64,000 bases of DNA, from the NCBI GenBank assembly GCA_910592345.1, contig CAJVPI010000041.1, positions 1 to 64,000 on the forward strand. Direction: 5' to 3'. The DNA comes from Paraglomus brasilianum. Lineage: Eukaryota. Each line of letters starts with the position of its first letter. Position 1 is the first letter of the stretch. The translations under genes and the position numbers were made by a program. Below are positions 7,854 through 61,682 of the stretch, piece by piece. Under the pieces are notes generated by a model, which did not search any database, was not told where the DNA came from, and was given only the letters and a program-made list of their open reading frames with translations.

Positions 7854-10800
7854 ATGGCAGAGGCTATAGTAAGTTAATTCACACTTTATGAACAGTTGCA
7901 ACATTTATTAGAACAGTACGAAACAATGTTTCATTATTATTCTGAAGTGAGAAACAGAATTCAAGGGTAATAGTCTACTGATTGTTACTAACTAATATGT
8001 TATTCCTACGTTTATTTACGTCAGAACAATGGCGAATTGTCATCCTCGAAAACGAGAAACAAAGGTAAAGGCAAACAAATCGAAGACAACGAGATTGATG
8101 ATATAACTCAATCGGACGAAAACCTGAGTGCAATCCAATTGAGGGAGGAGGTGATCAAATGCTTAGAATCAATTGCCAACAACAGAAAGCATCACTTTAT
8201 CAGATTGCATACCTTGTTGTTGACAACCAAGGATAAATTGGATGAAGATCAATTGGAGAATGTATTGAAAACAATAGGAACAGCAAATATTTCATATACA
8301 GCACATAAGGTAACAACTGGTATGGAGTTGGAGCTACATCTCAGAACATATGTGTTGGCATTGGAAGCATGGGGCAGGAGACCACTCATAATGGCAAAGG
8401 AACTCCGTGAGTCTTTGTATGGACATCTTGCTACTTTGAATGATTTTCATCAACGGCATACTGAAGCATTAAAGAATGGCCTGAAGAAAAACTTTAAATC
8501 TGGGTATACTCCATACAATGACCAAAGAACTGCATATGACTTATATTCTGGTTTAGAGAAAGGTGTCAATTGCCAGAATTACAATATTGATTTTTTGCTG
8601 ATACATCTTCGGGATACTCTTCATGCAATGCCTGATGATGAACCAGTCTTATTTAAGATTATAAGACCACTAAAAGCTGTGTTCACTAGCATGGTTGGAA
8701 TTTTACCTGGCATGGCTAATATTATGGCAAATATTCAAACGCCATTTGATAACAATAATTTCCTTGAGACATATAATAATATTCATCAGACACTAAACCT
8801 CAAGTTTCCTATCACCTATTGGTACAAGGATTGGAGATATTTATACAGCACATATCAAGCATTTGTTGAATGGTCAGATATACCAATCAATGAGGATTTA
8901 GTTTTCAAAGGTGAATTGATGATTATTAAAGATTTGTGGAGATTTGGAGATCAGGAATGGGCCAAAGCTACTGTAAAATCAGAGTCAGAGATGGATACTT
9001 TCAAGTCTGACTTAAAGCATACACTGGTCCATATTGGTGGTTATGCCCCTGTATCATACCCATATTCTTTATTGTATGGTATACTAGAAATTACTCAAAA
9101 ACTCATATTATCTACAAAAAATACTAGTACTTTGGCTCACTGCTATTATCTTGCAGTATTGACACTTGACCTTGTATTAACAGAAAATATTCAATTTAAA
9201 GCAATGGAAGTCTTGACAGCACTCTATAAAAAGGATCCAGATACCTTTTCAGTTGTCCAAGTAGATTTATGTCAGCATACCAAACATGTTACAGAATTGG
9301 ATGGAGCTAATAAAAGCAGGCTTCAAGATATGATTGAATACATTAATGTAAAATATAAATTTATTAAGCCTGCATTAGAAACATCAATAATGCCAATACA
9401 AAACACAGTGTTAGAACAGAATCCTGAGGAATTGCTTGATTCCAATCCAGATGATTTGTTGATTTTGGATATGGTGGCAGACCATCTCACATGTCCCTTT
9501 ACACAGAAAGTTACAGATGATTTTAGAATATTGCCATGTGGGCACAAGATCAGCTACTCAGCTTTAGGGAAATTTATGATATTCAATTATTCTTCATTAA
9601 AATGTTTTTACTGCAACAAAAAAATCAGGATCCAAGATACCAAATCATTAGAGAGTTCACCCATCTATAAAGCATTGTATGAAAAGTTTGTTGAAACTGG
9701 ACACATTACACCAAAAGACAACACATCAGACTTTACAACAGCTGTAGAAAACCAGGATGCCAGTGATTCTGAGGAATATTCTATCATGAAAACAAAGTTT
9801 TTATATTTACTGAAAATGAAACCTAAGAAAACTCTTCTGCAAAGAATTAGAAGACCAAAAGGACAACACCCCACATACAGACAAGGCAAGAAAGCTCTCA
9901 ATAATGGAAGATACAAAGATGCAATAATATGGTTGGAAAGAGCATGTGAACATTATCCTAATAGTTCCACCATTCAGTGTGATCTTGCTTATGCATATAT
10001 GCTAAATTCAGACTACAAAAAGTGTCATAATTATATAAATGAAACAATCAAGAATAATCCTAAAAATGCCAAAGCTTGGGCAATACTTGGAAACAATTAT
10101 ATGTTGCAATCTGAATATAGACAGTCCCTTAAAAATCTTAAACAATCATTGGAGATTGAACCAAATAATGCATTTGCATTGGGAGTAAGGGGTACTGTCT
10201 ATTGCCTGCTTAAACAATATGATAATGCATTGGTTGATCTCAATAAATCATTGGAGATTGAACCAAATAATGCATTTGCATTGAGAGGAAGAGGAGAAGT
10301 CTATTTTATGCTTGATCAATACAACAAAGCATTGGTTGATCTCAATAAATCATTGGATATTGAACCAAGCGACACATATGCATTGAGAGTAAGGGGAAAA
10401 GTCTATTGTAGGCTTGATCAATATGACAAAGCATTGGTTGATCTCAATAAATCGTTGGAGATTGAACCAAACGACGCATTTGCATTAAGCGGAAGGGGAA
10501 ATGTCTATCGCATGCTTAAACAATATGACAATGCATTGGTTGATTTCAATAAATCGTTGGAGATTGAACCAAATGACGCATTTGCATTGAGAGGAAGGGG
10601 AGAAGTCTATCGCATGCTTGATCAATATGACAATGCATTGGTTGATTTCAATAAATTGTTGGAGATTGAACCAAACAACGCATTTGCGTTGAATAGAAAG
10701 GTAGAAGTCTATCGCATGCTTGAATATGGAATTAAATTGGTTGATTTCAGTAAATCATTGGAGATTGAACCAAACGACGCATCTGCATTGAGAGGAAGGG

Positions 10801-11546
10801 GAAATGTCTATTGCATGCTTGACCAATATGACAATGCACTTGTTGATCTCAATAAATCGTTGGAGATTGAACCAAACGACGCATTTGCATTAAGTAGAAG
10901 GGGAGAAGTCTATCACATGCTTAAACAAGATGACAATGCATTGGTTGATCTCAATAAATCGTTGGAGATTGAACCAAATGACGCATTTGCATTGAACGGA
11001 AGGGGAGGAGTCTATCGCATGCTTGACCAATATGACAATGCATTGGTTGATCTCAATAAATCGCTGGAGATTGAACCAAATGACGCATTTGCATTAAGTA
11101 GAAGGGGAGAAGTCTATCGCATGCTTAATCAATATGACAATGCATTGGTTGATCTCAATAAATCGTTGGAGATTGAACCAAATGACGCATTTGCATTGGA
11201 AGTAAGGGGAGACGTCTATCGCCTGCTTAAACAATATGACAATGCATTGGTTGATCTCAATAAATCGTTGGAGATTGAACCAAACGACGCACTTGCATTG
11301 AAAGTAAGGGGAAATGTCTATCGCATGCTTGATCAGTATGACAATGCATTGGTTGATCTCAATAAATCGTTGGAGATTGAACCAAACGACGCACTTGCAC
11401 TGAAAGTAAGGGGAAATGTCTATCGCAAGCTTAAACAATATGACGATGCATTGGCTGATCTCAATAAATCGTTGGAGATTGAACCAAACGACGCATTTGC
11501 GTTGAGAAGAAGGGGGAAAGTCTATCGAATGCTTCATAAAAAATAA
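7854..11546 (+). CDS. U-box/RING plus tandem TPR repeat protein (~1180 aa)
   Basis: Short exon 7854-7868 (MAEAI) and a GT-AG intron 7869-8024 join in frame to the 1169-aa ORF. It contains LTCPFT...ILPCGH...CFYCN (U-box/RING-like), then TPRs. Confidence 0.85.
10141..11543 (+). repeat. Coding tandem array of 102-bp (34-aa) TPR units, 13 complete plus 1 partial
   Basis: Unit KSLEIEPNDAFALxxRGxVYxMLxQYDNALVDLN is near-identical at DNA level. Unit 6 is 33 aa. Confidence 0.95.
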
Positions 11547-11674: not shown

Positions 11675-12638
11675 CAGTCAAACCTCTTTATACCGATATT
11701 TTTTATACAGCCTTTGGAACCGTTTACTAATTATGATACAGTCGCACCTCGATATAGTCACAGCGTCGGGATATGAAAATTTGGTGACTGTAACAAGGTA
11801 TGACTATATCGATTTTCCTTTATATAGTCACTCAATAGGCCTGTTACTAAATTATGTGACTGTACAAAGGTAATATTATATGTATTATTACATCAATAAT
11901 CAAGTCTCAGTTAATTCACCCACAGTAGATATGGACCATAATTGCATATTTATTGTTTCTTAATTTTCATTATTAAAAAACTCCCTAATTTGATGTTTGT
12001 TTTTCATATTCTCGTTGAAATTTCCTTAAGAAATGTAATTATTCAGATCTAATATTCGATTCTGAGTTAGCCTGCTCTTCAAAACGAAGAACCGTTTGCA
12101 TTGCGCTATGTACTTCCTTAACTGTTACAAGTGGAGGAGGCGCTTCGTCCTCGTCGCTTTCGTCTTCAGCTGTTTTACTCACAACAAATATTGTCTCGTA
12201 AACTCTTTGGAAATTTCTTGGTGTTTGGCTAAGGGATATTTTTGAGAATATTCACAAATTTCTTTTCGCTGAGCATTATTGACATGACAGCGTGGTTTTT
12301 TAGTTGAACGTGGCATTGCAAAGAACACAAGATAAATGAGTTTTATTACTGGTAGATCATCAGATAGTCATGTGATTTTGTGACTAATTCAAGGGCAGAT
12401 CATATAATGGTGATATATATTGGTAATTGAAATGGTGTGATAGTGACTATTACCTAAATGTGACTAAATTTCATATAAAATGAGTCGGTAAATTTCAAAA
12501 TGTGACTATATCGCAAATGTGACTATATCGAGAGTGACTATATCGAGGTGCGACTGTATAAGATTTCTTCGGCTATACCGATAAACTGGTTATACTGATA
12601 GAAACGACGCGTGCCACTCGTATCGGTAGGTTTGACTG
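11675..12638. mobile_element. Small MITE interrupted by a nested element
   Basis: TA|CAGTCAAACCT...TACCGATA at the left end and TATCGGTAGGTTTGACTG at the right end. Confidence 0.65.
11739..12556 (-). mobile_element. Non-autonomous pogo-like element with perfect 23-bp TIRs
   Basis: CAGTCGCACCTCGATATAGTCAC ... GTGACTATATCGAGGTGCGACTG, with TA on both sides and subterminal GTGACTA repeats. Minus-strand acidic tail remnant EDESDEDEAPPPLVTVKE. Confidence 0.9.
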
Positions 12639-32060: not shown

Positions 32061-32400
32061 CCCCAATTCATAAGAGTGAACAAATTGGTTTAGTTTAATG
32101 GAGAAAGAAATAAAGAGATTTTTATTATAAATAAAGTTTAAGATTTAATTGGAGACATAAGTATCGTATATAATATCATTAATATGACGTCATTATTTAA
32201 AACCCTACTTTACATAAAATCCGCAAAATTGTGGTAACGAAAAACGAACCAATTTTATATTATTTAGATGGCGAATTCGCACCTACACGTGGGTTTGTAC
32301 TTGAGGAACTCATGCACGTGAATATTGATATGCTTCCCAGAGTATATTGGAAGAAAATACTCGTTCCAGGTCTGTTAATTTCGTTCGTATTATTAATAAA

Positions 32401-32871
32401 ATGGCTAAAGCCATTGCGTATGCTGAGAAGCGTGGTGGGAAATGTCTTGGTAAAACTAATCAAATAAATGGTTTCGATGTATATCTCTGGTCTTGCGAAA
32501 AAGGACTCCATCAATGGGAAGCACCTTATAAGATCCAGAAGCGGAAATTCGAGTGGTGTCCAATTTGTTTCCACCATACCGATGAGAGACGCTGTAGATA
32601 TATTTTCGAAGATTTGATGGGCAAAAAATTCCCGCCATGTGCACCAAAGTTCTTAGGTGGGTTACGTTTAGATGGTTATAACGAAGAGCTACAATTAGCG
32701 TTCGAATTTAACGGCTCACACCATTATTACCGCAGTGATTTGTATCACCGGAAAAACGGTGAGATCGACCTAGAGTCTCAAAAAAATCGTGATCAAAAAA
32801 AGCGAAAATTGTGCAAACAAAAAGGCATAAATCTTATTGAAATTCCGTATACCTGCGATCTTCTACCCTAA
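32401..32871 (+). CDS. Zn-ribbon plus PD-(D/E)XK/Vsr-like endonuclease of NCLDV type
   Basis: [21 protein letters not shown], then [43 protein letters not shown]. The stop may be premature, since the frame continues IHNALLEKGYL. Confidence 0.75.
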
Positions 32872-33048
32872 ATCCACAATGCATTATTAGAAAAGGGTTA
32901 TTTACCAAATATAAATACCGAATAACTTTCTGTCAAAGATAATAACGTTTATTATTTGGCCGTACATCAGTGGTACCACAAAAAAATGTTACGTAATAAG
33001 CTTCATCCATCTCATGCAGGCCATACGGCAAAACTTGATCGATGCGAA

Positions 33049-33783
33049 ATGTTTGTTTATCACATTGACGAGTGCAAAAATGCAGAAAGATTTAACTCAT
33101 TAAATTCGACGCCCCAATAGCCATTTAATGTTTTGGTCAGCGGACGAACTAAATCAGGAAAAACAAATATGATTGTCAATCTTTTACTTGGGGATAAGAT
33201 GTATCGAATGTTTAACGGGAAAAAAGGTGGAACACGCTATATAAAAAATGACGATCTACTGTTAATTGGACATCATCTTAAGGAACCCAAATATCGCCAT
33301 TTAAGGGATTGTTACCAAATCATTGCAAATAGTCCAAAGCCATATCGCGAAAATGTTACGTTCCGATCGATGAAGCCCGACAAAATACCAAAGATTGACG
33401 AATTTACTCCTGAAAGAGGGACGTTGGTTATATTCGAAGATTTATGTAGTGAGCCTAAAAAGGTGCAAGAAAAAATTATCCCTTACTTTACTGAAGGACG
33501 TCACTCAAACATCAGTTCAATCTACGTAACGCAAAGCTTTTTCGATTGTCCGAAATTAATAAGAAAAAATTTAGATTATATTGTGCTCTTTAACGGAGCT
33601 GGTACGTATGATGAATTGGTTGATATAGTTAGGCGGTATACAAAAAAATGGCGTAACGCTGTTGATATAATCGATAAGAATTTGCAAGGTCGGCAGTTCA
33701 TTGTAATTGACTTGACTAGAGCGAAAGAGGATCCTCTCTATATTCGTTTGGGTTGGGACACGCCTTTGAGATTAGATAAATAA
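33049..33783 (+). pseudogene. A32-like (FtsK/HerA) viral DNA packaging ATPase with one in-frame stop
   Basis: ATG 33049 is in frame, with TAG at 33118-33120 (PQ*PF). Walker A GRTKSGKT, Walker B LVIFED, and signature [35 protein letters not shown]. Confidence 0.88.
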
Positions 33784-33862: not shown

Positions 33863-34520
33863 TTACTCAGCCATACGGCCAAGCAAGAGCATTTGAGATC
33901 GTTGGTGACGTATGTCTTCACGAATAGTCCATAAAAGTTTGTAATGTTCAGCTAATTGCTTGACCATTAAACCATTGGGACGATACATGAATTCTATCCA
34001 TTTATGTTGGATAAGGGCGCATGCTCGCATCTTTTTCCCGACTTCCCTTGCCCGTTTAAGTTTGCTAATAGCATTTGACATCCATAATTCGTAATAACGC
34101 AATCCATAAGTATCGTCGAATGTACGATCAAATTTGGGTTTTTGTGTAATTTTCAAAAAATCTTAGTTCGCAATATTTATTACCAATACATGAAGTTTTC
34201 CAATGTTTCTCCATATATGCTTTGACATACGTGTATTTTCCAGTATATACTAGCTTGTCACAAGAGAAACAGATGACTATACCTATTGTTGGAGAGTATG
34301 AATTACTGTCTGGAAATCGTATCAACGTTCTGGCTTCAAGAAACTTTTTGTTATTAATATTCATAAAATTATTATTTCTGAAATATGTTAAGCTTTCCCA
34401 GATCCGTTCTTTCCACTCACCGGGAGTTTCTCCAATATGTACTTGTGGCATCCTGCAATATTCGGTCCATTCATCATCAGTGCATTTAGAATCGCGCAAA
34501 TCCTGAATAGTAACAATTTT
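33863..34520 (-). pseudogene. Frameshifted hypothetical gene of the element (Cys-containing)
   Basis: Two overlapping minus-strand ORFs (34128-34499 and 33863-34156) with ICFSC...HWKTSC. Intronless. Confidence 0.5.
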
Positions 34521-35260
34521 ATTATTTATATGACCAGTTATGTGCTACAAAGATATGCAATTTAATGGAATAAAGCGTAGTAGTGTTTCAGATGTACTAA
34601 TCATACACATTATAAATATTGGATTCAATTTTAATCGAATTGGCTCATCCAGGGTTTCATATTTTTTGGGGGTGTCTTAGCGAAACCAAATTTAACATTC
34701 AGCATGTATTGTGACCTCAATAATAAAAAGTTTTCTTATTAGTACGCGTTTTCTTTTTAAGACGTCAGCTGGGGGTTATTTCTCCACCATTCATCGCTTT
34801 CAGCTGGGCCATTAAAAATATATCTTGTTCAGATCTAGAAGAGCCTCACATAACTCGACAAACTTCTCGGAATTATTTTTGAGCAACCACAATTGCAACC
34901 TATTTCCAAGAAACGCATTGCTTTTTCGTATTCGGTTGAACCGTTATAATTATAATCTTTCATATACGGGTACTCCTATATATAATTTTTATTATTAACA
35001 ACTTATTACACTGTTCCTACTTTCTTGGAATCGAACTAATATAATAACGATAAGGCGCAAATAATATGGCACTTCATTTGCCACAATGTTCGAGTAGATT
35101 TATCGTTATATTTCCTAAAATACTAAAGTCAAGAAATTCAATCACTGATTAAGACTCTTGAAGATGTTAAAAATTTAATTTTCTGTTCATGAGCATAACT
35201 AGTCATTTGCTAAACCCAATACCTGCTGAAGAAAGTCAAAAGCGAACACTCCACTTGCCA

Positions 35261-37794
35261 TCACGTTAGTGATGAAATACTAGACTCGTAAACAAGGGGA
35301 TCTTGGGCCACAATTTGTTCCTCAGACCAATAATCGCCTGTCTCCTCATTTTCGAACCTCCACGCTTCATCAAATGGTGAAATAAAGGCGCCCAAAAGGT
35401 CTGCTAACTCTTCTTTGACAGTGGGATCAAGAAATTTGAAGAAATTCAATCCAAAGTGTGCAAAAGGGTGTTGTTGTTCTTCTTCAAGTTTTTGGCGTTT
35501 GGACTTGCGGATTGGTGGAACCTCTCTGAGTTGTCCCTGGAATCCGAGTTGCCAATATAAAGTGATGTATTGCTCTCCATGATCTTTGAGATCTGATTTT
35601 CGAAAAACGAACCGTGAAGTTAATTTGGATGAACCAGACTCTGGATAGCTCTTGTCTGCATTCCGGTCACTTGATGCATAGTTCTTCACTTGAATGAGGA
35701 TATAGGAGTATCGGTCTTCAGATAGTTTTACAGGGATCATAATGTCTGCACCGGGGTTGTTGCGCTTAAGAATTACAGCACATCGTCGTTGATAATATTC
35801 TTTCAAAGAACATGTTTTAGGGGCATATGTTATGGGAATGAAGTGTGTAAAAGCCACAGTTGCATCTACAAAATGTTGTAGGTCATCAACTGCAGCAGGA
35901 TCCAATAATTCCATTAGCCGTTTGACTGTGATGACGGTTGATTTCCATTCTTTCTTTTCCTGTATAGACCTCATTGCAAGAATTAGGATAATTCGTGCCA
36001 CCACTTCTCCACGAGGGCCTGCATCCACGAACCCTTTTTTCAGCATCTCATTAAACTTCTGCAGAACACAAACCAACGTATCATTATTAGTAATAGCAGA
36101 TAATGCTGCTTCTGCTAATAAAGGTTCCGAGGGATAACGAACTAACAAGCGCTCCCTGTCACGTGATACTGCAACACACGTTGCCATATGCAATGCCACA
36201 AGATCAGAAGCAATTTTTGACTGCGGTGAAATATCCAAACAAACAAGTACTGACAAAATGGCAATACTGGACATCTTTTTTTTGCTGTCTTTGAAAGCAT
36301 TTACTCCACCAAAGAGTTTAATCTGCAATAGTGATACCAGTCCTCTAAGGGCTACTTCAGTTGAAGAACTTGTCCGTTTGACATCAAAATAGCTGTAAAT
36401 TAACGGTCTCCCCAGCCTTGCCAATTGGACAATTTGACCTTCTTCAGACGTTCCTGCTGGATCTTCTGTTTTGCCTTCAAATATATCCATCGTCGTAAGT
36501 CTAATAAAAGGATGAAATAATTCAAATCCTAGGTCGTCCTTTCTTGCAGATGGGTCTGCTGATGAGGGTGGTGTAAAGTTAGAAATTTTGCTAAAAGTGT
36601 CCAAAAAGAGGACGAAGAATCCATTCCACCCGATATGTCTCATAGCTCTTCTAAGCAATCGAAATTGAGTACAACCATCATCTTGCACAGAATCAATGAG
36701 GGATCGTGCTTCATCAATACATAAGAGAATTTTGATTTGATTGTCAGAATTATCTGTGAACAGGAATTTATCCACATCGAGGTTCGCATCCTTCCGGTCA
36801 ACTTTCTTCCAGTCTTTACTGGCTTCCGATACCTCTTTCCAGAATTTATTGCACCATTCGTAATCCAGTTGCCATTTCCAGAGGTTCTCAGCTGATTCGT
36901 TGAGGGAATATCCATGCAGTTTTTTGATAGCGTGCCAAAGAATGAACATAAACCGCCATTCCTCTCCACCTGAGATCTGTCCTAGACTATCAAAGATCTC
37001 TGGTGCATAAGGCGTAGCAGGCGGATATCCTGTACTTCGCCTGGGGCGTAAACACACATATAAAGTGGGAATTTTCATTGCAATCTGCTCAATAAGGCGA
37101 GTTTTTCCATAGCCAGAACTCTGAAAGAGCGTTCCATAAGGTAAGTGATTTTTCTTATTAGCAAACCAATACGCGTGTTTCTTATTGATGTAGTCCCGAA
37201 ATCGTTCGACTATTTTCAATGGATCCTGGTATGGTATTTTGAAAGCTTCCACAAAAGCCTGTTTTTGCTGGTGCAGCACAGCCGCAGTGGTTTTGTCGTT
37301 TTGAGTATCCTTTGCTAAAGAATGCATAGGAGGAGGAAAAACACCAATTAGTCAATGTTGCAATGGTAGTTTGATCTCAATGCTTGTAATGCATTTGAAC
37401 TACTCTCCCTCTGTTGACCCCATGGCTACTCCACAAACCCCCGTTGCTCCTCTATTAACCCATAATGTCTCTTGTCCCCTCGAGTTCTCTTTGAATGAGT
37501 TTATTATTATGTATAACCTAGCTCTGCTACGATTCTGCTCTGTCCCAACTAATAACGCCCAACTGCCTCTCTCTCTTCTTGCAATATAGCACAAAACCAG
37601 TAACAGTATTCAAACTCTTCTCCCCATTGCTCCTCTATCCTCTCAATAAACGTGCGTGGTTTTGCTTGCTTACCGTGTTTTTTAAGATATTCCTCATATT
37701 CTTCTTCTGCTTTTGCTAAGGTGGCGTTGGGATGTTTACGACTGTATTGCCATAAGAACTCCTCTTTCCTCATTACTCTTGCCGTTGGGTCCAT
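35261..37794 (-). CDS. Crinkler-type P-loop NTPase plus PD-(D/E)XK nuclease protein (688-aa exon intact, 5' exon(s) degenerate)
   Basis: Walker A QSSGYGKTRL, Walker B LLCIDEAR, FLDTFSKISNF, YPSEPLLAEAA, GPRGEVVARIIL and nuclease-like NPGADIMIPV...ILIQVKN. Probable intron at about 37316-37403, with upstream ORF 37549-37794. Confidence 0.8.
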
Positions 37795-39067: not shown

Positions 39068-39834
39068 CTGCAATTTTAATATAGTTGTATGAGTATTCGC
39101 TAAGTTATACCCAGACGTTGCGCAGCGCATAGCGATGTATCGAGTGTTTACTTTGAGAACGCACGGAAGTGATAGTTACCTTATTTTTTGCGGTGCCGCT
39201 AAATAATAATCGGGTTGCGATCTTTTAGTGTGATGCGTGAAGTAAAAAAATACAGTCTGATAGATTGTTAATCGTTGGTCAGGATGTTTGATTTATTGAG
39301 CCAACGCTTTGATAATGTTTTTTCTTACCCAAATCTCCGCCGTACGGCAGCGTTTTATACATCAAAGCTTGTTATTAACAAACCATAGCATTGGTTCTTC
39401 AGATTTCGTTCTAAATCGAAGTAATAAATTACCAGTATAACAAGTTCATACAGCTATAACAAATAATAACAGCGATTTTATATTTATGAATCTACGTTAT
39501 ATCAACTATCCGTGGCATTGGTCTTCTACGTCTCGAAGTAATAAATTATTGACGATCAATATGTTATTAATAGCCTGTGGCACCACTCTGAAATACATCT
39601 GCTCCTCAGAGATTATTTGCGTGCGTAATGATAAGATTGTCCACACTAACAATCACAAAAAACCATCGAGGTGATAATATCTCACCGAGAGAAATCTGAA
39701 ATTTTTTACCCGATTCCTGTTTAGTGATATGGAATACGGTTTTATCAGTTTCGGTCATTGTAAATGTTAAATTATTTTATTAATACGAATTTAAAAATGC
39801 AGAATTAAATATATTGTTATAATAAAACATCACA

Positions 39835-40218
39835 ATGATAACTTTATTCTGCGAAATCAATAAAGTACCAGTAACAGCTATATTAGATTCCGGTGCTAAT
39901 TGTAATATCATAGGCGAGAGTATAGCAAAAATAGTAGGCTTGAAAATTGATAATACCTCTGATACGGAAATATACAGTTCCATTAGCGAGCTCAATATAT
40001 TGGGAATAATTCGTGCAATGGAAATTTTGGTCCTGTCTCAAGATCAGAAATGGGAGCAAGTAGAAGTTAGTGATGTTTTCGTTACCAATAAACCCGAACT
40101 TGAATCTGTACTGATATTGGGTCAGCCATGGTTCCAGGAAAATGCAATGAAACTGGACTTCCCAAATAAAACTCTTACGTTGCTCAATGGAACTAGTTGC
40201 GAGGTTAAGTGTAATTGA
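39835..40218 (+). CDS. Stand-alone retropepsin-like aspartic protease
   Basis: AILDSGANCNII catalytic motif and C-terminal LILGQPWF. No gag, RT or integrase nearby. Confidence 0.85.
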   Translation: MITLFCEINKVPVTAILDSGANCNIIGESIAKIVGLKIDNTSDTEIYSSISELNILGIIRAMEILVLSQDQKWEQVEVSDVFVTNKPELESVLILGQPWFQENAMKLDFPNKTLTLLNGTSCEVKCN

Positions 40219-40647: not shown

Positions 40648-41716
40648 TTAGTCTTTATCATAGATTCGAAATAGTCTTGCTTGCTCTGGGGATTGATTTT
40701 TTCTCCGATAATTCACCACAACATAATTTTGTACTGGTGAGGTGTGATTGTCAGGATTGTGGTGTAAAGCTTCTCCAGCGATTGTCATAGCATGAGCTAA
40801 ATTCTTTGCCCCATGTACCACCACAGCATATACAGCCCCTATTTTACGTAAATGGCGAGGAATTAAATTATAACCTTTTAAGAATCTATTAAACCATTTG
40901 GCCCCTGGCTTACCTGGGTTACCCATTTGGCCAGAAGATATAGCGTTCTGTATCCAGGTTAGCAATTCTTTGGCTCGTTCTTGATTCTTTTCCATAGATT
41001 TAAATTTTCTATGAATATCTGGCTGACCCCTGTTCTTCGCATAACCCGTTACACCGGCATTTGTAATACGTAAAGTAGTAACTTCAGCGGGACGCATACA
41101 GAGCATCAGCAAGGGCTTGTGAGTCAGGCAGTGTCTTAATGTTATATTTATTTAACCGATTCTAATGTAAAATGATCTGGATAGTCGATTTTCTCAAAAT
41201 CCTCAGCAATTTTTCGTCGACTTGTCTGAATTTTGTTAGACTTATCTGTAATCTCAAAGATTTTTGTCGCTTCAACTATATTATATGGAGCATTAAGATT
41301 TCGTAATTCTTTCCGAAGCCGGGAAAGCCTAGAGGACCCAGCAACTTCATTCAAAGCCGACTTAGCTAACTTTATTGCTTCGGCTTTTACATCCTTTTCA
41401 CTAAGTTTATCTTGTAAAATCCGTTGTGCTATCTCTTTGATGGTTTCCTCCGATTTTACCAAGGCCTTGCCTAGGCCGTACGGCAGAGTTACGATATTTA
41501 TATCTTTTCGCTGGCTTTTTCTCTGAGTAGGAATTAATATGCTTACCTGTTCCTCACTGAATTTGAAACCATCTCGAAGACGTCTTCGTGCTTGATTTCG
41601 CTTTCTATCATCTGTAAGCTCTTTGAGCAATTCAGAAGTATACTTACTGACTCAGATACACTCATTCCTGGGTTAAGATTGTATTTTCCAACGATCGTTG
41701 TTGCAATAGCTGACAT
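40648..41716 (-). pseudogene. Tyrosine recombinase, protelomerase (telomere resolvase)-like, frameshifted
   Basis: Joined from ORFs 41543-41731, 41148-41630 and 40648-41112. The catalytic order is R (CMRPAE), K (TGYAKNR), R (RHLRKIG), H (EALHH), Y (PVQNY), after a helical N-terminal region. Confidence 0.7.
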
Positions 41717-42017
41717 TTCGATTATATTCACTTTCTTAGGTTATGTCCTCTTTGCTAGGTTATATACTATGCAAAATATTCTTTCAATTCGAAAATAATT
41801 ATCGGTGTTTCTTCTACAGCAAAAATGCCAAATGTCGCGACCATTTATCGTTTGAATATCTTTAATCAGAAGAAAAACAACTAAAGTTCGGATAATTAAT
41901 TTGGGCGTACATATACTATGTATTTTCCGGATGTCACCCAAGCTTTGTCTAAATTATTACGGATTTTAAGCATAATTGAAATTAAGAAAGAAAAATATAA
42001 ACATAAAATAATAATAT

Positions 42018-42423: not shown

Positions 42424-45400
42424 TTAAACGATATCGAATAAGACCTGGGTATTCTGTGAGATACACGTAGAATTAGGAGGCGGTTCTAATTCATCAGGTG
42501 AGAGTTTACTATAAGAATACCGCCAATCTTCTCCATTCTCCCAATCTTCGCCCGTTTGATATGGTGGTAATTTGGGAGCACCCTCATTGTCAAATGCTCC
42601 AACTAAATGGTAATGCGTATTTTTATTATTAGTAGTTTTAAACTTTATCCCATAGAATGCAGAAAGTGCTGAATTTAATAAACCAAGTTTTGCTTTATCC
42701 GATTTTAAGCCAGATTTTTTAGCACTACGAGATGGGTCTGTATTATCAAAAACCCGAGCCATTTTTGGTACTAAATTTTGGAGGTATTGTATCGATTCTG
42801 GTGAGTTTAAGCACATTTTAACGTCATTAACTCTTTATATCTATTTCGATCGTCAATATCTTTAACCGGTGTACAAGTCTTTATTAATTCCAGACAGATT
42901 CGATGTTTTTCAGTTCTAGTAACGGTTGTGAGTCTATCATTTCTATAATCTTCACGGGTAATTGCCTCAACTGCCGTCTCATTGTTAGTGCCGGCATCTC
43001 GTAATTTCCGGAGAGCTCTAAACCAGCACATATGATTATAATTTCCAAACTCCGAGATGAATTCTTCAGTCAAAGACTCAGGTGTTATATCATAGCAATT
43101 TACAATATGGTGTCGGTCTAATGCTCGCATTTCTTCTAAAGTTTTCTTTGGTTTATTTTCTAGATGCTCAGCTGTTTCGCGGTTAATAATATTTGCATTT
43201 GCAATATCCGAAATTTCCTCTGCTTTAATAACCGAAGAATAACCCTTTACTGTTGCAGTTAATGTCATGGTATTATCTTCAGGTTTGGGAGTTGGCTCTA
43301 TTACTGAAACTATCATACCCGCCTTTCGGAGAAAATCAACCATTCTCCAACCAAATAGACGTTGAGAGCGGAATTTTTCCAACATATATGCCACCCATAA
43401 TCGGATAGTTGGGACATCTTTATTTCGAATAATAGTATCTATATTTGGAAATATTCCTCTATTCTGTAGCTCTTGAGGGAGACATCCGCGCTTTGCTTCC
43501 GTTAACCATTGAAACAACTCCTCTTCTGTAGTTGGGGCTTTAGATGTTCTTTGTTGAATATAGCATAAATAATCTTTAATGCAACGCATGCGGAATAACA
43601 TCTGATTAGTCCCAGCATTTGTTTCTATATAACTATTAAAGAGACAGAATGCACGCTCAAACTTAGGATTGGTGCAAGAAACTCCTATTTTTAATGTGCT
43701 AGTATATGCAACCAGATCAATATTTTTCCATGCCTTTTCTACATCTCTGAAATCTCGAGTCTTTTCTATGGGATCGGACTTACCATGATATTCTTTTATA
43801 CGTAAATTAGGGAACTCCTCTTTCAGACTACGCACAATACCTTGAATATTTCTCCTCTCATGGCAGATAAGTGATGCGCTTTTTCGCTCCTCAAAAGGTA
43901 GTGATGATATTTCCTTAGCCCAATCCCAGAGCTCTATTAATACAGTTTCTTTATCGGAAGCAAGACGGAATGTTTTACCTTTTTGGGGCTGGTATGTGTT
44001 GTGGATAACTGAATATTTCTTATTCGGTCGAAGTCCTTTAATCCATTCAATATTAAGGTCAGTGAGATCATTATCTAGTACAATAACCCTCTCTGCCTGT
44101 GTTATTAATTCTGAGAAATTAGCAAGAGATATAGATAAACCACTTAACCGAGTTTGTGTTTGCGCAATAACCGATACAATCTCATCCAATGCTAGAATAT
44201 AAGGATTTGGAATACATTTACATTTTTTAGTCCCGCTAACCCCATTATCACATTTACATTTATTAGTAATGCGATGTAAACTTTCTACCTGGCACACTAC
44301 CCTTTGATGATCTCTGAGATTTATAGGTCCATCAATATCGCAATACGATTTGAGATTGAGCCTAGTGGTGACGGCATCTGAATAAGTATGTCGAGTTGAT
44401 ACTACGAGTAAGCTTGTATTTTCAGGAATATTTAAATTTTCCATGGCATATGTTTTCCCAGTTTCCCAAGGCGATCCTATATAAATATCGTTTTCTTTAG
44501 ATAGAGGTTTCACATATCTTTCTTCATATTTTTCTGATGCGGTAAGGGATTCATCGTATTTAACCCAAGATAGCATTTTTAGAAAGGCCTTTGGGAATCC
44601 CGAGTCTTTTGTTTTATGAGAGGTAGGTGGTAAAATATTATTTTTTATTTTTTTGTTGGATTTTTTCTGCAATAGATGGGTCATTGAAAATTTCCCCTGA
44701 TTCGTCACGATTTTGCTGGAAACATTTCACAATGAATGAACCATTACCATATGCACGGCCAAACCACCGCTGATCCTTGTCGTGTGTGCGATTACATAGT
44801 GGGCATTCTAGATATGTTTTTCGATTAAAATATACGAAATGTTGGGAATCCTTTTCTTCGATATCCCAACCACCAAGATAATCAGGATACTTCTGCAAAA
44901 CTAGATTCGCGTATTTTTTTAACGCATCTTGACCCACGATTATTTTTTTCTGATTATTTATTTTTTCTGTACTAAGTATACGGGGTCTTACTTCATATCT
45001 CGAACTAAAAGGTGGTTGAACTCTGGCGTCATTGAGATCATTCCACCCATTATCTAGTGAGAATTGAAGTATGCGCTTTACGCGGTCTTTTTTCGCAGAA
45101 CCGATGATGCGAAGATTAAAATTTCGACCAGGTAATCCCTTATCAATAAACTTACCATATTTTTCTCCCGTTAATTTATATACCAATTCTGTAAATTCTT
45201 TAAGCTCCTGATAGTCAATAAGGAGAGCTGGAGCGTATAGAAGGTGGTAACTACATTTGTTAGAATCGGAGGATGAAGCAATTACCAGTCCTTTGAGAAT
45301 TTCCTCCCAACTACAGTCAAGGATTCGATATAATGCTCTTATAAATGAACAACAAATACGAATGAAAACGTCATCAGCAGTTACAGTATCAGCTCGCATT

Positions 45401-46008
45401 TTCTCACTAGAGGCATCAATATCAATCACAGGTCTCAAAGGTCGTTGTCCGTTAATACATTCATGTACTCCAGGAACCCCATATACTTCAGAAATATTAT
45501 CTACAACTGAATATTTATAATAACCCCTCTGTTCTACTTGGATGACTAATCTATCAACCAATTCTTCTCGTGTGTACGCATCTAGCAGACTAATTCCTTC
45601 TTTTGCTCCGTAATTAGGTAAGAGATAATCCCATAAATGTATATCTTCTAATGATCCTTTATTGTTCGACATATCTCTGACAGGTGAAGAGACAATTTTG
45701 CGGATTCTATTTAGTAGATCCATTTGAGTGAATTTATTATCGAACTTTTCTTGCCTTTGAGTATATATAACTCCCACTCGATCTGTGGAATTTGTCGAAT
45801 TAGACATTTTCTCTTCTACTTTAGGAGGTTGGGAAATTGGAGACTTAATAGTACTAGTCTCGGTATATGACTCATATTCAGAGCCATAATCACTGCAATT
45901 TTCCGATTCACATTCGGATATATTATCACTATATTTATCTGAGTCGCTTGAATAGTCATCGGTTTCCCCGCCGTCGTACCGCTCGAGTTGTGCGTTGCGT
46001 GCTGTCAT
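42424..46008 (-). pseudogene. Fused AEP primase, Zn ribbon and UL9-like origin-binding SF2 helicase (~1190 aa, two frameshifts)
   Basis: AEP motifs RPVIDID, KCSYHL and FIDKGL..NFNLRIIGSAK. Zn ribbon CPLCNRTH..KCF. Helicase motifs SPWETGKT, VSTRHTY, CQVESLHRI, LDEIVS, YTSTLKIGVS and QMLFRMR. Breaks at about 44645 and 42820. Confidence 0.88.
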
Positions 46009-46150
46009 TTTTTTATTGGTATGTATCAATCTTTGTTCGATTATATTATTACAATATAGTTTGGAAAAGTTTAAATATCGATATCAAAAAAATGCATCGA
46101 GTTTTAATGAGATAAATGAAGAGAATCGCGATCTTGATTAGTGAATACTT

Positions 46151-47335
46151 TGGGTATATAAGTTCGGTAATATATATGGAAGTTATATACCCATTTTGAT
46201 AATATGTTTTTGGGTAGATAAGTTCATACTTTGATTATATGTGTTCGGGGTATATAAGTTCAGTAATATTATATAAGAAAAATGGGAGTTATATACCCGT
46301 TTCGATATATGCTTTCAGGGTATGTGATCGGGTGTAGACCCAAAGGGTCATTGCTTTGCAATAGTAATATGCAGAATATGTATAAGAAAAATGGCAACAC
46401 GCTACAATTTTTTCGGGTCGGGGTAGATATCTACCCACCTTAATAATATGTCTTCGAGTTATAAGTTCAGTAATATTATATAAGAAAAAACGGAATTATA
46501 TACCCAGTTGATAGTATGTCGTCGGGTATATGCTCAGAGTGTATAAGTTCAGTAGTATTATACCATTTGACAACATGTTTCTGGGTATATTTTGGATATA
46601 TTTTCGGGGTGTATAACTTCAGTAATATTATATAATAATTATGGGAGTTATATACCCGCCTTCCTATATAATTAGTCAAAGTTAACCCACTTTTTTACTA
46701 CGTATGTTCTCAGGACATATTTCTGGTATCAAAAATTCTGGCAATCGAAATCGACATACTTTAATATAACGTACGCGATAACATTTTTTTAATAGCATAG
46801 CCCGATAGCATATATATGATAGCATTATCGATAGCATTTATGTGATATACTCTACGGAGTAGGATGCTTGCATCTAGCATACATATTTGGTGGCATACCC
46901 GATAGTAGGAATATAGCATACCCGATAGCAATAGGTAGGTAACATTGGGCCAGCAAATGATGATGCATAACTGAATGCATCGTTGGTATTTTTTTTGCTG
47001 ATGTGGCCCAGTGATGGGAATTGGCCACGAACACCAAGCCAGCATACAAATATCGCGGATCGGAATATTATATAACAATATCCTTCGCCGATATGTTTTC
47101 GGGTATTTAACTTCAGAAATATTATATAATAATTATGGAAGAAGAATACCCTTTGCTGATATGCTTGGGGTATTAGTCTGTATTCGGAGCATTACGATCG
47201 GGTATTCAGCGCCGTACGACTCGGAAATATTATATAATAAAACCCTTCGCTGATATGTTTTCCGGATATGTCGTTATAAGATAGGGTATATAACTTCAGA
47301 AATATTATATATAAATTATGGAAGTTATATACCCT
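46151..47335. repeat. Array of palindromic units GGGTATATAA(C/G)TTC-[AT-rich spacer]-G(A/G)AGTTATATACCC
   Basis: Copies at about 46151-46193, 46248-46298, 46458-46505, 46607-46657, 47101-47151 and 47283-47335 (perfect 15-bp arms, 23-nt spacer), plus half sites. Confidence 0.9.
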
Positions 47336-47589: not shown

Positions 47590-47845
47590 TAATGCCTCGG
47601 CTGAATGACGACGCAACCACAGACGCATCGTCACTCGAACAATGACGCAAACGCGGCTGACTTTTCCAACTAACACCTCAGCTGACATCCTCGATGGGTA
47701 CAAAGGCAAATGACGATGCAAACACGATCTTGTCGTCACTCGAATAACGACGCAAATGCAAACACATCGTCACTCCATAACTGTTTACTTCTTCAGCTAA
47801 CACCTCAGTTGACATCCTCGGCAAATGACGATGCAAATGCAAACT
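47590..47845. repeat. Interleaved short direct repeats
   Basis: TAACACCTCAGYTGACATCCTCG x2, GGCAAATGACGATGCAAA x2 and TCGTCACTC x3. Confidence 0.8.
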
Positions 47846-47866
47846 CATGGGTGGGAGCGGGTATAT

Positions 47867-47958
47867 CCTAACTGAGAGGTCATAACCTAGTGTCATAACC
47901 TAACTGAGATGTCATAACCTAGACTAAGTGGTCATAATATAATTATATTATGACCACT
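47867..47958. repeat. Subterminal GTCATAA repeats ending in a perfect 32-bp palindrome (candidate hairpin telomere)
   Basis: GTCATAACCT at 47879, 47892 and 47911. AGTGGTCATAATATAA|TTATATTATGACCACT at 47927-47958. Confidence 0.95.
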
Positions 47959-48511
47959 GTTGTTAACTGCTCATTTAATTCAGCACTGCTCAGATTTGGG
48001 GGAAATAATTGTTCACAATCTTCAGAATTGTCATTCTCACTATCACTTTCAAAAATGATAAGGTCTATTTCAGCAACATTCTTAGTCTCTGCATCTCCAT
48101 GCTGCTTCTCCTTCCCTTTGTTTTTGATACCTGAAGATGATTGTTGTCCAATCTCCTAGTAATATTGAGTTGTACGAGCATTGAAAAAGTTGTAAGAGAA
48201 TTTTTCCACATTGAATAATTAAACAACTTAAAAAGGAGCTTATTGAATATATAATTAAAGCTTACCCAGCTATCTGCTGGCAATGAATACTTATGGTCCA
48301 TGTCAAATACAAAAGTTTTTATTGATCTGACTTCTCAATACTACTAACTGTATTAGTTTTCTGAAGAAATTCAATGCATGATAATAAGCAATGAAATTCG
48401 CTTGTTTATTGATTTTATAGGATCTTTATTGACAATTCGCTTGTGTGATGTGATACAATTGGAGTTGAAATTAACCAATCACTAGTCACTGATAACACAT
48501 TCTGTATACGT

Positions 48512-48790
48512 ATGACGAATACAACAGTTTCAACTTATCTAAAAGACAGGGGGGAGAAGAGCGTAAATACCTTGGAATCCCAATGTGAATCTTTTGTTTA
48601 TGCCAGAGTCTCAAGCTCAAAACAGAAAGAAGATCTTGAAAGACAGAAACAATACCTCCTCTCGCAGTTTACAAACCACTGCCTTATTTCAGACATCGCA
48701 CCAGTATCAATTTCAACTAGTTTCTACCAATCGACACTTGGTTGTGAGTAGTAAAACCTGTTTGAAGGTCACTAATGGTCGTTTGTATTT
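48512..48790 (+). pseudogene. IS607-type serine recombinase (TnpA) fragment
   Basis: VYARVSSSKQKEDLERQKQYL...ISDIA, then a frameshifted LVVSSK. No TnpB/Fanzor is visible downstream. Confidence 0.8.
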
Positions 48791-56260: not shown

Positions 56261-57075
56261 TGTGTGAATAGGTTTGGTGCAAAAAAAATTATCGCTCTAG
56301 AGAATAACGTGTGCTATTTTAATAAGCAGTTAAATTGTATTCTTGAAAACCATAGCTTAATTTTAACCTCGTGGTATTTGTACGTGCGTGTGATCTATAC
56401 TATTGTTGCATATTAAAAAATAGTTCGGATTCCACAATAGTTTTACAGGATTTGCCATAATTATTCTGCAATACGTTCTCTCCACAATGACAATGTTTGA
56501 GGATATAACGATAATATATCAACAGAAAAAAATTATTGGCTCTAGATAAGTTAAATAGATATGTTAATTTGGCTCAAACATGCATAAATGTAATGCGAGT
56601 TTCTGAGCATTTAATTGGACAGTAAATTCACTCCACATTTTTTCTTTGTATCTTAATACATGCTTAAAGCTTTTTACTAATTTCCCTTGCCTTCCGATTG
56701 CATTGCATTTCTGTAACTTGTAACGATGTAATGCAAATTTATTATCGAATTTATAGCCAAGAAATGGAACTTTTGATTCACCGCAGTATTTATTACCGGT
56801 ACATGAAAATTTTCATGGTCATAATTCCTATATATTTTAATTTATTTCTTTGTCCAGTATAAACTAATTGATCACGAGAGAAACAGAGATTTCAGGGTAT
56901 ATGAGTCGCCATCCGGAAATCGTGTTAATTTCCCTTTAAGATATCTTTTACACCGATTAGTAAAGATAGTTTTTTTCGAAGTACGTTAAATTAACGAGCC
57001 CAGATTTGTGACATCTAACAATATTCAGGTGTACAGGCCTCATTATCATATGTTTTTTCAGCGTGTCACATACTA

Positions 57076-57993
57076 CGGTCAAGACTGGATATAACGATAC
57101 ACCCGTTAGGCATTTTCATCGTTATAGCGATAACATGATAGTTACGAAAAAAAAATCGTTATACAAGATATTATCTATCTTGTTTGATATTCGGTTTTAT
57201 TGAAAAAAAGATTCAGTGATACTACAACCTACATTCTGATAACAAAACCGTCTAGCATTGACTGTTTCTTATTATTGACGTGGTGCGTTAGCACTTGTTT
57301 TCGTAAGGAGCGTACTGTTGGTACAGTACTTGCATCGCAATTAAAACCTGCGGGTGGATGAACGAGAAAATCGAACACAGTTCTTTAAAACAGTCTCCTT
57401 TCCCTGAGAAGGTTTGGGCTTACTAGAGAGTTTAACACAACATCCTTTTTTTTTGTGCAAAGGTCAAACGTGTTCTCAAACGTTTTGTTGGATATTGGGT
57501 GTTTTCGCTGGTAGCTCGTTTATTGAGTAACATTTGTTTAGTATTAGACATTGAAAATCGGGGAAATGAATATTTATTATATGTAATACTAATACAGTCA
57601 ACCCGCTCTATAGTCACGCTGTCGGGAACAATGCAACTTTTGTTGAAAATGTGCTTATAAAGAGGTTGTGATTATATAGAGGGTTTTTCCTATAAGTTCA
57701 ATAGTAATTGGTTCTCAAACATGGGGTGCTTATAAAGAGGTTTTTATATGATGTGCTTATAGAGGGGGTGACTATAAAGAGGGTTGACTGTACTCGAAAT
57801 TCGTACAGTTTTGATTGGTCATGGGTGGATGTCACACAAAAATATCGGTATAAAAATATATTGCTACAATAGTTGGTACATCGTATACGTATCGTTATAC
57901 GTAATAATAATAACGAGGTTTTAACAATGACAAATTTCATCGTTAGATCCAGTTATCGTTATATACAGATATCGTTATATCCAGTCTTGACTG
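57076..57993 (-). mobile_element. Non-autonomous pogo/Tigger element with 24-bp TIRs
   Basis: TA|CGGTCAAGACTGGATATAACGATA ... TATCGTTATATCCAGTCTTGACTG|TA. Remnant KRLRTRLTFAQK is CENP-B-like N-terminal HTH. Confidence 0.85.
57595..57790 (+). mobile_element. Complete 196-bp MITE nested in the previous element
   Basis: TA|CAGTCAACCC...GGGTTGACTG|TA, with a second copy at 1081-1265. Confidence 0.92.
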
Positions 57994-58989
57994 TATTAAA
58001 TAAACTATTTTTTAATATGAGTTACAAATGCACTGATAAACTTTAAAAATTCATAACTCAAAAAGTTTCAAGTCTTTTCAATAAAATAAAAATGCATTGA
58101 AAGCCAGAAAGCAAGACTATATTCAGTTTAAATTTCATTTATTTTGGTTGGATATTTGTGGAGTTATAAGCCTATACATTCAATTCTTCTAAACATTGAG
58201 CCGGTTTTGTGAGTCACTGTATATGGAGAGTGTGCATATATGGAGAGTCGGCATTTTATTGGGTGCACGTGATATATATTTTATTTATTCATAATAACGA
58301 TAATAATAATGAAAGACAAAATTAAAATACCTGTTACTATTTTTGACTAAAAAAATTGTCTATGGTTGTTTGTTTCTTTGCATTCATCAACTTTAAACCA
58401 ATGTAGTAATCAAGAGCATTAACTTGTTTAAGTAACTCCTTAGAATCTTCTTGCTGTTGCAAAAGGAACGAACTAATTCTAATTCTAAACTCTTTATTTA
58501 TTTCTTTCGCGAACGATTACGAGATTCTTTATGCAATTCATAACGCCGAATGCCGACCTTTAACAAAAGATGTTAAAATTTCTTTCATGAACGATTACAA
58601 ATTCTTTATCCATCATTAATTCTCTATTTACCGAACCTATTAATATTAAACGAAGGAATGTTAAACAAGCAATTTTGACAATGATTCACGAATCTCTTTC
58701 AAAGTGTAACCAATAAGGCTAGCAAGTATTACAAATCACACTCTTTGTATGATCTTTACTTTTTTTAGACATCTTGTGTACCGGTAATTATCATTTGTTG
58801 TACAAAATAACATGGAAATCACGGGCGTGCATATAGAGAGGGTGGATTTCATATAGCGGGAAGTGAAAAAAACCGTGCAATGCAGAATATAGAGGGTGTA
58901 CATATATTTACTAACTCCCGAGCTTGGGAATAAGACTTGGCGTGCATATATGGATGGTGTGCATATATACAAGGAAATTCTAATGTACA

Positions 58990-59519: not shown

Positions 59520-59947
59520 GCAAAAAGTATAAATACGATACAAGATTTTACTTGTAAAACATACGAAAAATCGAAATTTTCAAGTCGTTAATTTTCCATG
59601 TTATCTTAAAAGAGTACCAAATTATTGTAAAGCTAAATGATTGTAGTTTTAATTGAAATATCAGTAATTTTAAAATATTAACGATTGTCGTATATACCTC
59701 CCCCAAAAATATAATACGATTTATGTCGATTAATTAAGCAAGTAAAGTCTGCATCTCCTCCTCACTGCAATAAATAGTAATATTATAAAATTGCTGAAAT
59801 CCCTCAATTAAAACTACAGTCATTTAGCTTTACAATGGCATAAATTTTATTGGTATTTGTTTAAGATAATATTGAGAATTAGCGACTTGAAAAATTCTGT
59901 GTTTACTAGTAAAATCTTGTATCGTATATCGTGTTTATATTTTTTGC
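59520..59947. mobile_element. Foldback-type MITE (long imperfect inverted repeat)
   Basis: Arms of about 160 bp, e.g. TACGATACAAGATTTTACT / AGTAAAATCTTGTATCGTA and TTGTAAAGCTAAATGA / TCATTTAGCTTTACAA. Confidence 0.8.
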
Positions 59948-61682
59948 TTAGGCAGAAATGTTTATTATTCATGAGTATGTTCTAATACTGTACATTGTTG
60001 GTAGAATGAGAATGATGTAAAGTATAAATAACGTAAACATAACCAGAAAAAAAAATCACATTAATATTAAATAAAAAGTTGCATTACATGTTGTTATGTT
60101 TGGTCACTTGAGAGAATGTTTGTGTTCAAACTGGGTAATATGCTCAAAATTTAGCCCTAACCTAGTCTTACTTACATGTCCGCAGCGGCTCTTTATATCT
60201 TCTATTGCCAAGATATAAATTCTCACTCAGGCTTCATTCTGGTACGATATAACATTCTTCTATATTCCTCTTATGGAAAGAATTGTTGTAGAAATATACG
60301 TGTATTTTATGAAAACTAACATCCGCAGTTAGTTACGAACAATTCATGTGAGATCGGCCGCAAATATTCCATGAAGCTTAAACTATGATGAAAATAATGA
60401 ATGGCATTCTGTTTGCAAAGGTATCACTGCATTCAATTGACCCATTATTCAATAAAACGGAATTTATGCTATGCTTATCTAGTCACATGGAAACAAGTAA
60501 CGCACATGTGATTGAAGAATCTTTCTGTGTGAATGTATTGCGCAACCAGAAAAATATGCCGATTTTTGTATGCGTGCCATTGTTTACTAGGCCACAGATC
60601 GAATTTTTTCTAACCAAAAAATTACAATAATGTAGATGATGGTAATCTGAAACGAAACGCTACAAACAATAGTCAATTAAATCATTTATATTTATAATAA
60701 TAACAGGTCATATAATAAAATGGTTACAATTCAGGATATACATGACACTAAATGCAGTGAATATTGATGGTCTACACTAGTGAAACCCACCGGTGAACGA
60801 ATTTGGGTTCGTTTAATGTTACCAGTAAATTGATACGATTTCCAAATGGTATCTACAGAATTACATTGGTCATACAATACCAAATTTGGTTTATAAATGT
60901 AGTTAGTAGATTAAACGTGCGCTATGTAGTTCGATCATACAAATAAATCTATTGATATTATTATTATCATCGTCCCATCCGGAAAGGATGAGCTAAGCAT
61001 TACAGACTTTATGTCAAGAACTTAATTTTTTATATTGTGCTTCTTTCTCCCGAACATACTGTAAATCTAATTCTCAGATCCGGGCTTTACCCATTCACCG
61101 GAAATTGCGTTTTCTTGCCGTTATATGGTTTGTAATGCTAAGACGTGGTTGAAGAGCGGAAGAAAAAAATTAAGGACCGGAATATATACGTCGGTCAAAT
61201 AACAGAATTAATCGCGTGTATTATATAATTATTGTGTAAAGAAAAGACTTATTTATTATGCCCCACCCACTTGCTCTACTCGAAGACATCTTCCCAAGAC
61301 GAAGCAGGTTATCCTTTCCTAACCCTTAATCGCTTTTGGTATGCGTGTTTGGCACCCCCAACTTAACAAAAATTATGCCAAGCCCCAGAATTTAGATTTG
61401 CATTCATGAATATACTAATACAGTTTCTGATTCTCGATCAATGTAAGGAATTCTCTACTACGATCCTTAACCAATAGAAGGAAATGACATTCTTGTGTCC
61501 CAACAACGCCAAGTTTGTCAACCATGCTTTTAGACGTGCATATGGCCATTGTCAATTTGTGTACCTCACTCATACCATGCATTCGTTATTTTATTAATTT
61601 CAAAATTGTAAATTTATATTATATAATTACACGTTTTATGTCATACAATCTTATCATTCATTAGTCTTCTTTACACATTCCT

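Follow-up and report, generated by a model that had tools for sequence, protein, structure and literature searches.

A terminal 32-bp palindrome and an enzyme with a predicted telomere-resolvase fold in a multi-copy DNA element of arbuscular mycorrhizal fungi

The window analyzed here (the whole 64-kb stretch of Paraglomus brasilianum DNA) contains one end of a DNA element, present as a decayed copy, whose features are collected in Table 1. Read inward from the terminal palindrome on the minus strand, the element carries inverted boxes in an array, followed by genes for a primase, a UL9-like helicase, and a recombinase; the primase and helicase, which are fused in relatives, are separated here by a frame change. 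The element's left end was not found within the 64-kb window.

Table 1. Coordinates of the element's features and of its flank in the window
Feature	Position	Strand	Remarks
Endonuclease-like ORF and A32-like packaging ATPase	32329..33783	+	ATPase at 33121-33783
Aspartic protease ORF	39826..40218	+	Similar sequence in 3 of 244 resolvase-family gene models
Telomere-resolvase-fold gene	40648..41716	-	Three frame changes in this copy
Copy of the subterminal repeat pair	41737..41763	-	~20 bp upstream of the resolvase start codon
UL9-like origin-binding SF2 helicase, two frames	42424..44726	-	PF02399 E 5.7e-16; PHROG 4913 E 9e-20
Primase ORF, AEP of NCLDV C962R / herpes UL52 type	44638..46083	-	Class from feature search only
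Array of inverted 14-bp boxes flanking AT-rich spacers	46151..47335		7 plus-strand and 5 minus-strand matches
Subterminal region with three GTCATAACCT repeats	47821..47926		47910-47926 within the multi-copy terminal unit; inner 18-bp block common to L001
Terminal 32-bp perfect palindrome, 13+6+13	47927..47958		Putative rTel-like resolvase site; the element ends at its outer edge, +/- 1 base
Host flank, 5′ part of a pseudogene from a multi-copy fungal gene family	47959..48170	-	Interrupted at the palindrome's outer edge

The primase had no match in Pfam and none in a profile search of PDB sequences; a gene model labelled Paraglomus brasilianum matched it with 100% identity over 35% of the query. 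The helicase showed a weak pairwise match to RepA of phage N15 (E 1e-4), had no relatives in IMG/VR, and, like the resolvase, gave no tblastn match in GenBank phages. Relatives of the element's genes were named from Gigaspora, Entrophospora, Diversispora, Rhizophagus, Cetraspora, Dentiscutata, Paraglomus, and Geosiphon. Judged from locus tags, primase-helicase and recombinase are adjacent in three of seven Diversispora primase models (426g16/426g14, 117g518/117g523, and 40g139/40g143, respectively) among the 120 of 173 matches listed, and some gene models fuse the recombinase to a helicase tail or to a protease. Several Gigaspora resolvases carry the name "d5-like helicase-primase", and the P0241 gene model has a resolvase fragment after another domain, which we take from its motif to be a D5-type helicase; some elements may thus use another helicase. 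The endonuclease-like ORF and the A32-like ATPase possibly belong to the element; such an ATPase was found on the same scaffold as a resolvase in one of four Diversispora models (158g4/158g17). The 14 window ORFs scanned, which represent a decayed copy without its left end, included neither PolB nor an rve integrase. Between the ATPase and the resolvase lies an intact ORF of 696 aa (35261-37351) with a P-loop-like motif and no Pfam match, presumably a Crinkler-type NTPase/nuclease that represents cargo or a host gene. ORFs beside the ATPase have decayed relatives in the window (34169-34613 is ~72% similar to 56782-56887 and 60627-60760).

The palindrome is spacerless, with arms of 16 bp each around the AT-rich centre TAATTA, and is the longest of its kind in the window, where the runners-up have 8-bp arms. 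Order-3 Markov simulations of the window (n = 60) gave maximal arms of 7 to 12 bp, and the analytic expectation for such a palindrome is 4.4e-5 per window; no other long palindrome able to serve as a resolvase site was found in the 64 kb. An exact 32-mer scan of the metagenome collection returned a single locus, a JGI metagenome contig (L001) that starts at the palindrome's outer edge, is identical to the window's element end at 62 of 65 bases and, apart from an 18-bp block deeper inside that the two have in common, differs from it thereafter. The spacerless 32-bp palindrome with AT-rich centre that the earlier note had described from the sequence is therefore confirmed both by the window scan and by an exact copy elsewhere. 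A soil run from another study (X9) covers 47832-47957 with no mismatches and one gap, and a run with a second organism label (X17) contains diverged copies of the palindrome. Runs X1 and X2 represent one sample, probably the source of the window; X9, X5, X17, and L001 are independent of that sample. In IMG/VR, a 24-mer gave no matches, a 17-mer gave 23 matches, every one in unrelated context, and an 18-mer gave one match, inside an unrelated phage gene; a 27-mer gave no matches in GTDB genomes.

The palindrome caps a terminal unit of ~45 bp that is multi-copy in two organism labels and in soil metagenomes, and the sequence beyond this unit varies. In all four runs, including the soil run and the run with the second organism label, contigs from 47840-48040 are concentrated on 47910-47958 (in X1, 2655 on the terminal unit versus 342, figures that do not represent a copy number), and 7 of the 32 listed pieces end at 47958 or 47959. 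Seven loose-end rows (10 contigs) among the 24 of 45 rows listed have their ends in the right arm, +4, +8, +11, +14, +16, +17, and +17 from the axis, where exact end positions vary with aligner tolerance; none of the seven ends within 3 bp of the axis, four (6 contigs) reach 14-17 bp beyond it, and the +4 row continues as a palindrome with a shortened centre. One more loose-end row begins at 47927, the mirror of the outer edge. The element interiors are of at least two types, the window type and the L001 type, the latter also present in X5 and X17; these may represent two ends of one element or sister families. ORFs in the L001 interior had no Pfam match and no similarity to the window genes or to the 244 resolvase-family proteins. 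Minus-strand ORFs at L001:746-1994 are directed at the palindromic end and are possibly second-end cargo or host DNA.

On the other side of the palindrome, the flanking pseudogene is cut at 47958/47959. Paralogs of this right flank start at 47958-47962 (7 pieces) or 47968 (4 pieces), and the sequence that precedes the flank in them keeps the pseudogene's reading frame and resembles an intact TPR gene at 8162-8182. Since the paralogs continue in frame past the edge, the element sits in a host gene, which it breaks off at the outer edge to within ~1 base; the other half of this gene was not found within the 64-kb window. What the earlier note had taken for unrelated decayed sequence after the palindrome is indeed decayed, but can now be identified as the 5′ part of a minus-strand pseudogene from a fungal gene family. 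The TPR protein (7992-11546) contains 13.7 copies of a 102-bp unit, and its N-terminus is of the same family as the interrupted flank gene. Two contigs (X1 record 4 and X2 record 13) join the palindrome to the right flank with 30 letters on the palindrome side, one below the bridging rule applied to contigs; unitigs break at the palindrome and none spans interior, palindrome, and flank, so that interior and flank may have been mis-joined at this repeat. The likely source runs nevertheless have similar depth on both sides (342 vs. 293 and 480 vs. 476).

In these arbuscular mycorrhizal fungi, the palindrome marks the fixed end of a DNA element that exists in multiple copies. That it represents an element end and not a fold-back follows from the multi-copy unit with varied sequence beyond it and from the flank paralogs that start at 47958-47962, and the terminus proposed from the sequence is borne out. 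Two further expectations about this terminus were not supported as worded: homology had been predicted to stop at or near the axis, and contigs mostly stop 14-17 bp beyond it; the junction had been attributed to a hairpin nicked off-centre and then joined to a chromosome, and a fixed outer-edge junction is unlike random nicking. A randomly nicked one-off hairpin would be expected to leave variable arms, whereas a fixed 13+6+13 site was seen, which suggests either an enzyme site that is maintained or nicking at a position set by a protein footprint. Plain telomere fusion and random hairpin opening thus do not explain a junction where homology mostly ends 14-17 bp past the axis, and a join at the axis itself, by telomere fusion or a Cre-like crossover, was rejected because no listed contig stops there. 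A Helitron hairpin was rejected by the usual criteria for Helitrons, as no HUH Rep was seen and the palindrome lies flush with the element end.

The enzyme's fold was modelled on an intact homolog (P0020; pLDDT 90, pTM 0.71) and compared with 48,161 PDB chains. Telomere resolvases occupied ranks 1-4 (TelA, Z 13.8, rmsd 5.8 over 253 aligned residues; TelK, Z 12.3; ResT, Z 8.5), and the best non-resolvase recombinase chains were SroF (7.0), lambda Int (6.5), XerA (6.3), Cre (5.7), and pox topoisomerase (5.7); middling Z values can be reached by chance for helical proteins, but the resolvase rows lie far above the rest and cover both domains. Residues 63-349 of the model align to TelA 121-417, including the helical bundle, the long linker helix, and the fold of the YR catalytic domain. 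A second structural comparison gave the same ranking order of resolvases; an earlier model of lower quality (pTM 0.48), in which Cre came first by E-value and TelA had the higher TM-score, was superseded. Sequence identity is 12-13% to TelA and 10-13% to TelA/ResT. ESM Atlas feature matches carried PF16684 on 19 of 30 rows and Phage_integrase on one, and returned the ResT and FirrV-1-B51 clusters; a profile alignment against 50 TelN-like proteins covered the linker region (P 0.0016). The fold ranking and the ESM Atlas matches support the protelomerase-like enzyme that had been postulated for the element.

Assigned by alignment and motif order instead of superposition, with the TelA residues taken from PMC3558466, the catalytic R, K, R, H, and Y are kept in 44, 44, 39, 36, and 35 of 46 rows, the misses being mostly gaps; the third catalytic position, a Tyr in TelA, varies (K in 18, S in 16, and R in 5 of 46). 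By HMM, PF16684 matched none of 36 family members at E ≤ 1 and none of 14 at E ≤ 5; Foldseek gave no match at E 0.001 (all were 0.06 or weaker), and a BFVD fold search gave nothing at E ≤ 0.001. A PDB sequence search with the resolvase profile gave no matches, PHROGs gave no informative match, and no resolvase relatives were found in IMG/VR. The recombinase has 103 longer relatives, intact ones being widespread in Glomeromycota, and a profile search returned 645 matches, many of them fragments, including GC-rich metagenomic members of unnamed host. Ten divergent members with 28-46% mutual identity (P0143, P0149, P0169, P0178, P0185, P0187, P0202, P0212, P0233, and P0244) were found on contigs of 1-22 kb from Logan/ENA/JGI, and the family may not be confined to Glomeromycota.

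On the element side of the palindrome, GTCATAACCT occurs at 47879, 47892, and 47911 and nowhere else in the window, which confirms the three direct repeats reported to precede the palindrome. A pair of these repeats recurs upstream of the resolvase gene, its sole other window match being at 47895 (rough chance 8e-5, calculated post hoc); the presence of the pair at both places suggests that one protein binds both. The 14-bp boxes are absent from the rest of the window and form at least five inverted pairs around AT-rich spacers upstream of the primase. This array is a candidate replication origin that the helicase would bind; the boxes, which we take to resemble a loxP arm, may represent either an origin or a second recombinase site.

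The recurrence of the repeat pair near the resolvase gene is consistent with the palindrome being cognate to the element's resolvase, and so is its size. According to PMC3558466, TelA binds a stem of 13-14 bp and all known protelomerases cut 6 bp apart; two 13-bp stems and a 6-bp cut spacing add up to 32 bp, the length of the palindrome, and the TelA substrate arm is 16 bp (PMC10686437). Positions -10 to -4 match N15-like telomere sites in register at 6 of 7 bases in 24 of the 36 loci that have a palindrome, out of 64 (rough chance 0.003, for a motif test picked post hoc); the match of the palindrome arm to the TelA arm is weak (9/16, p 0.02-0.03). Centre variants with 3- and 5-base gaps occur among the copies and break the even symmetry. 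Two point changes convert TelA into a Cre-like recombinase (PMC13221069), so the fold alone does not fix the reaction.

The palindrome is likely, given the predicted fold, to be the site at which the element's own enzyme cuts and reseals DNA, and we consider it reasonably probable that it is the resolvase site of an N15-like, hairpin-ended replicon that now resides in fungal chromosomes and replicates as closed linear DNA. A resolvase dimer would bind the two 13-bp arms, cut 6 bp apart around TAATTA, and seal each half into a hairpin; the element would then exist as covalently closed linear DNA, copied by the primase-helicase from 46151-47335, as phage N15 is with TelN and RepA. Resolvase chemistry joins at the axis and the junctions lie at the outer edge, so insertion needs an extra step. 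More speculatively, chromosome entry might occur by a join at the site's outer edge, either after the hairpin is opened where the footprint of the bound enzyme ends or through transfer of an enzyme-linked end; such a join would leave the whole site, which could be cut later for release.

Like the element, phage N15 (TelN, telRL, RepA) combines a resolvase with a primase/UL9-like helicase module and a spacerless palindromic site; its RepA is weakly similar to the element's helicase, and the arm motif matches in register. The N15 RepA primase is of a different class from that of the element. Unlike the element, in which 6 kb separate the site from the gene and host DNA adjoins the site, the N15 prophage stays unintegrated, and its telRL, 56 bp long, lies beside telN. 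Agrobacterium TelA and Borrelia ResT are the best structural matches and have the 13+6+13 site size and AT-rich centre in common with the element, but they are bacterial chromosome-maintenance enzymes, and their third catalytic residue is not kept in the fungal family. Phaeovirus EVEs of Ectocarpus are likewise integrated in a eukaryotic genome and carry a telomere resolvase together with a telRL-like site (PMC13236599), and the FirrV-1-B51 cluster is among the top ESM Atlas matches of the fungal enzyme; these EVEs differ, according to PMC13236599, in being giant viruses of 288-407 kb whose tyrosine integrase is a separate enzyme and which have CC junctions and a telRL located internally. In the fungal element, the site is terminal and a second integrase was not found. 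Polintons/Mavericks, Polinton-like viruses, and Cryptons are also mid-size integrated DNA elements, some with an A32 ATPase, a primase-helicase, or a tyrosine recombinase; Polintons/Mavericks differ in their PolB and rve integrase, neither of which, nor any capsid gene, was detected in the fungal element's scanned ORFs, and Crypton and integrase-type YR elements differ in that the fungal enzyme is resolvase-fold with junctions outside the dyad.

A more far-reaching version of the hairpin-replicon reading, which we regard as tentative and rather doubtful, would have one protelomerase-fold enzyme run the whole cycle, with a full site at both integrated ends, excision as a hairpin-ended replicon, and outer-edge reinsertion, in a new class of eukaryotic element across Glomeromycota and beyond. 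L001 and similar X5 and X17 contigs would then represent the second end. If the A32 ATPase belongs to it, the element may also be a small fungal dsDNA virus.

It is unlikely, though deserving of consideration, that the enzyme has turned into an integrase/excisionase, with the palindrome as a binding site in a terminal repeat, an outer-edge crossover via a circle, and no hairpin telomeres. Tyrosine recombinases cross over within the dyad and not 16 bp outside it, the fold is clearly closer to resolvases than to integrases, and the primase-helicase suggests an autonomous replicon. Such a role would nevertheless fit the clustering of junctions at the outer edge, the enzyme's position as the sole candidate integrase found in the element, and the hundreds of chromosomal fragments among the 645 profile matches, which imply frequent insertion. 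Telomere resolvases are also capable of Cre-like recombination (PMC13221069), and inverted and direct repeats occur at the att ends of phaeovirus EVEs (PMC13236599).

Still less probably, the palindrome serves the UL9-like helicase as a binding site, either as a terminal origin or as the tip of a Polinton-like TIR, with integration by an enzyme in trans and the resolvase acting elsewhere. The AT-rich centre with direct repeats is similar to herpes or plasmid origins, and the end reads AG...CT, as Polinton tips do. However, a separate origin-like array is present at 46151-47335, the terminal repeat motif recurs at the resolvase gene and not at the helicase, PolB and the rve integrase were not seen among the scanned ORFs, and the window offers no alternative long palindrome as a resolvase site. 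The A32-like ATPase lies 14 kb away and shares a scaffold with a resolvase in the one Diversispora model of four mentioned above, and Mavericks are present in these fungi (PMC11952901), both of which would agree with a Polinton-like element. A one-off fold-back, repair scar, or assembly artefact, the last of which the earlier note had itself raised as an assembly fold-back, could account for unitigs that break at the palindrome and never bridge the whole junction, but is highly improbable, since L001, X5, X9, and X17 all have the site beside different flanks and depth is similar on both sides in the likely source runs.

Hairpin telomere resolvases have so far been described from bacteria, phages, and brown-algal giant viruses, and among the matches listed from the full-text literature, none described a fungal protelomerase element; Repbase and most subscription papers lie outside the scope of this statement. 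Repbase may file these repeats as Crypton, Maverick, or unknown, and the supplements of papers on transposons of arbuscular mycorrhizal fungi may list these families. Mycorrhizal genomes have 18-45% unknown TEs (PMC11952901). The site is thus genuine, lies at the element's end in many copies, and is linked to a resolvase-fold enzyme in a lineage from which we found no such enzyme described, and the resolvase activity itself is predicted from the modelled fold. If the hairpin-replicon reading is correct, resolvases would be extended to a new kingdom, with a candidate site and many intact natural homologs, and some of the many unclassified repeats in mycorrhizal genomes would receive a name. It would also provide a directly testable enzyme-site pair, show a hairpin-ended replicon residing in, and perhaps leaving, a eukaryotic chromosome, and supply an enzyme adapted to eukaryotes alongside those that make closed linear DNA vectors.

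Several smaller features were observed elsewhere in the window. A serine resolvase fragment at 48449-48751 (PF00239, E 2e-4, below the cut-off) is possibly an IS607-like relic. An inverted repeat with perfect 18-bp arms and a 6-base spacer is located at 868-909, and MITE-like short elements with terminal inverted repeats were found at 1081-1258, 11729-12566, 57071-57998, 57580-57805, and 59533-59927.
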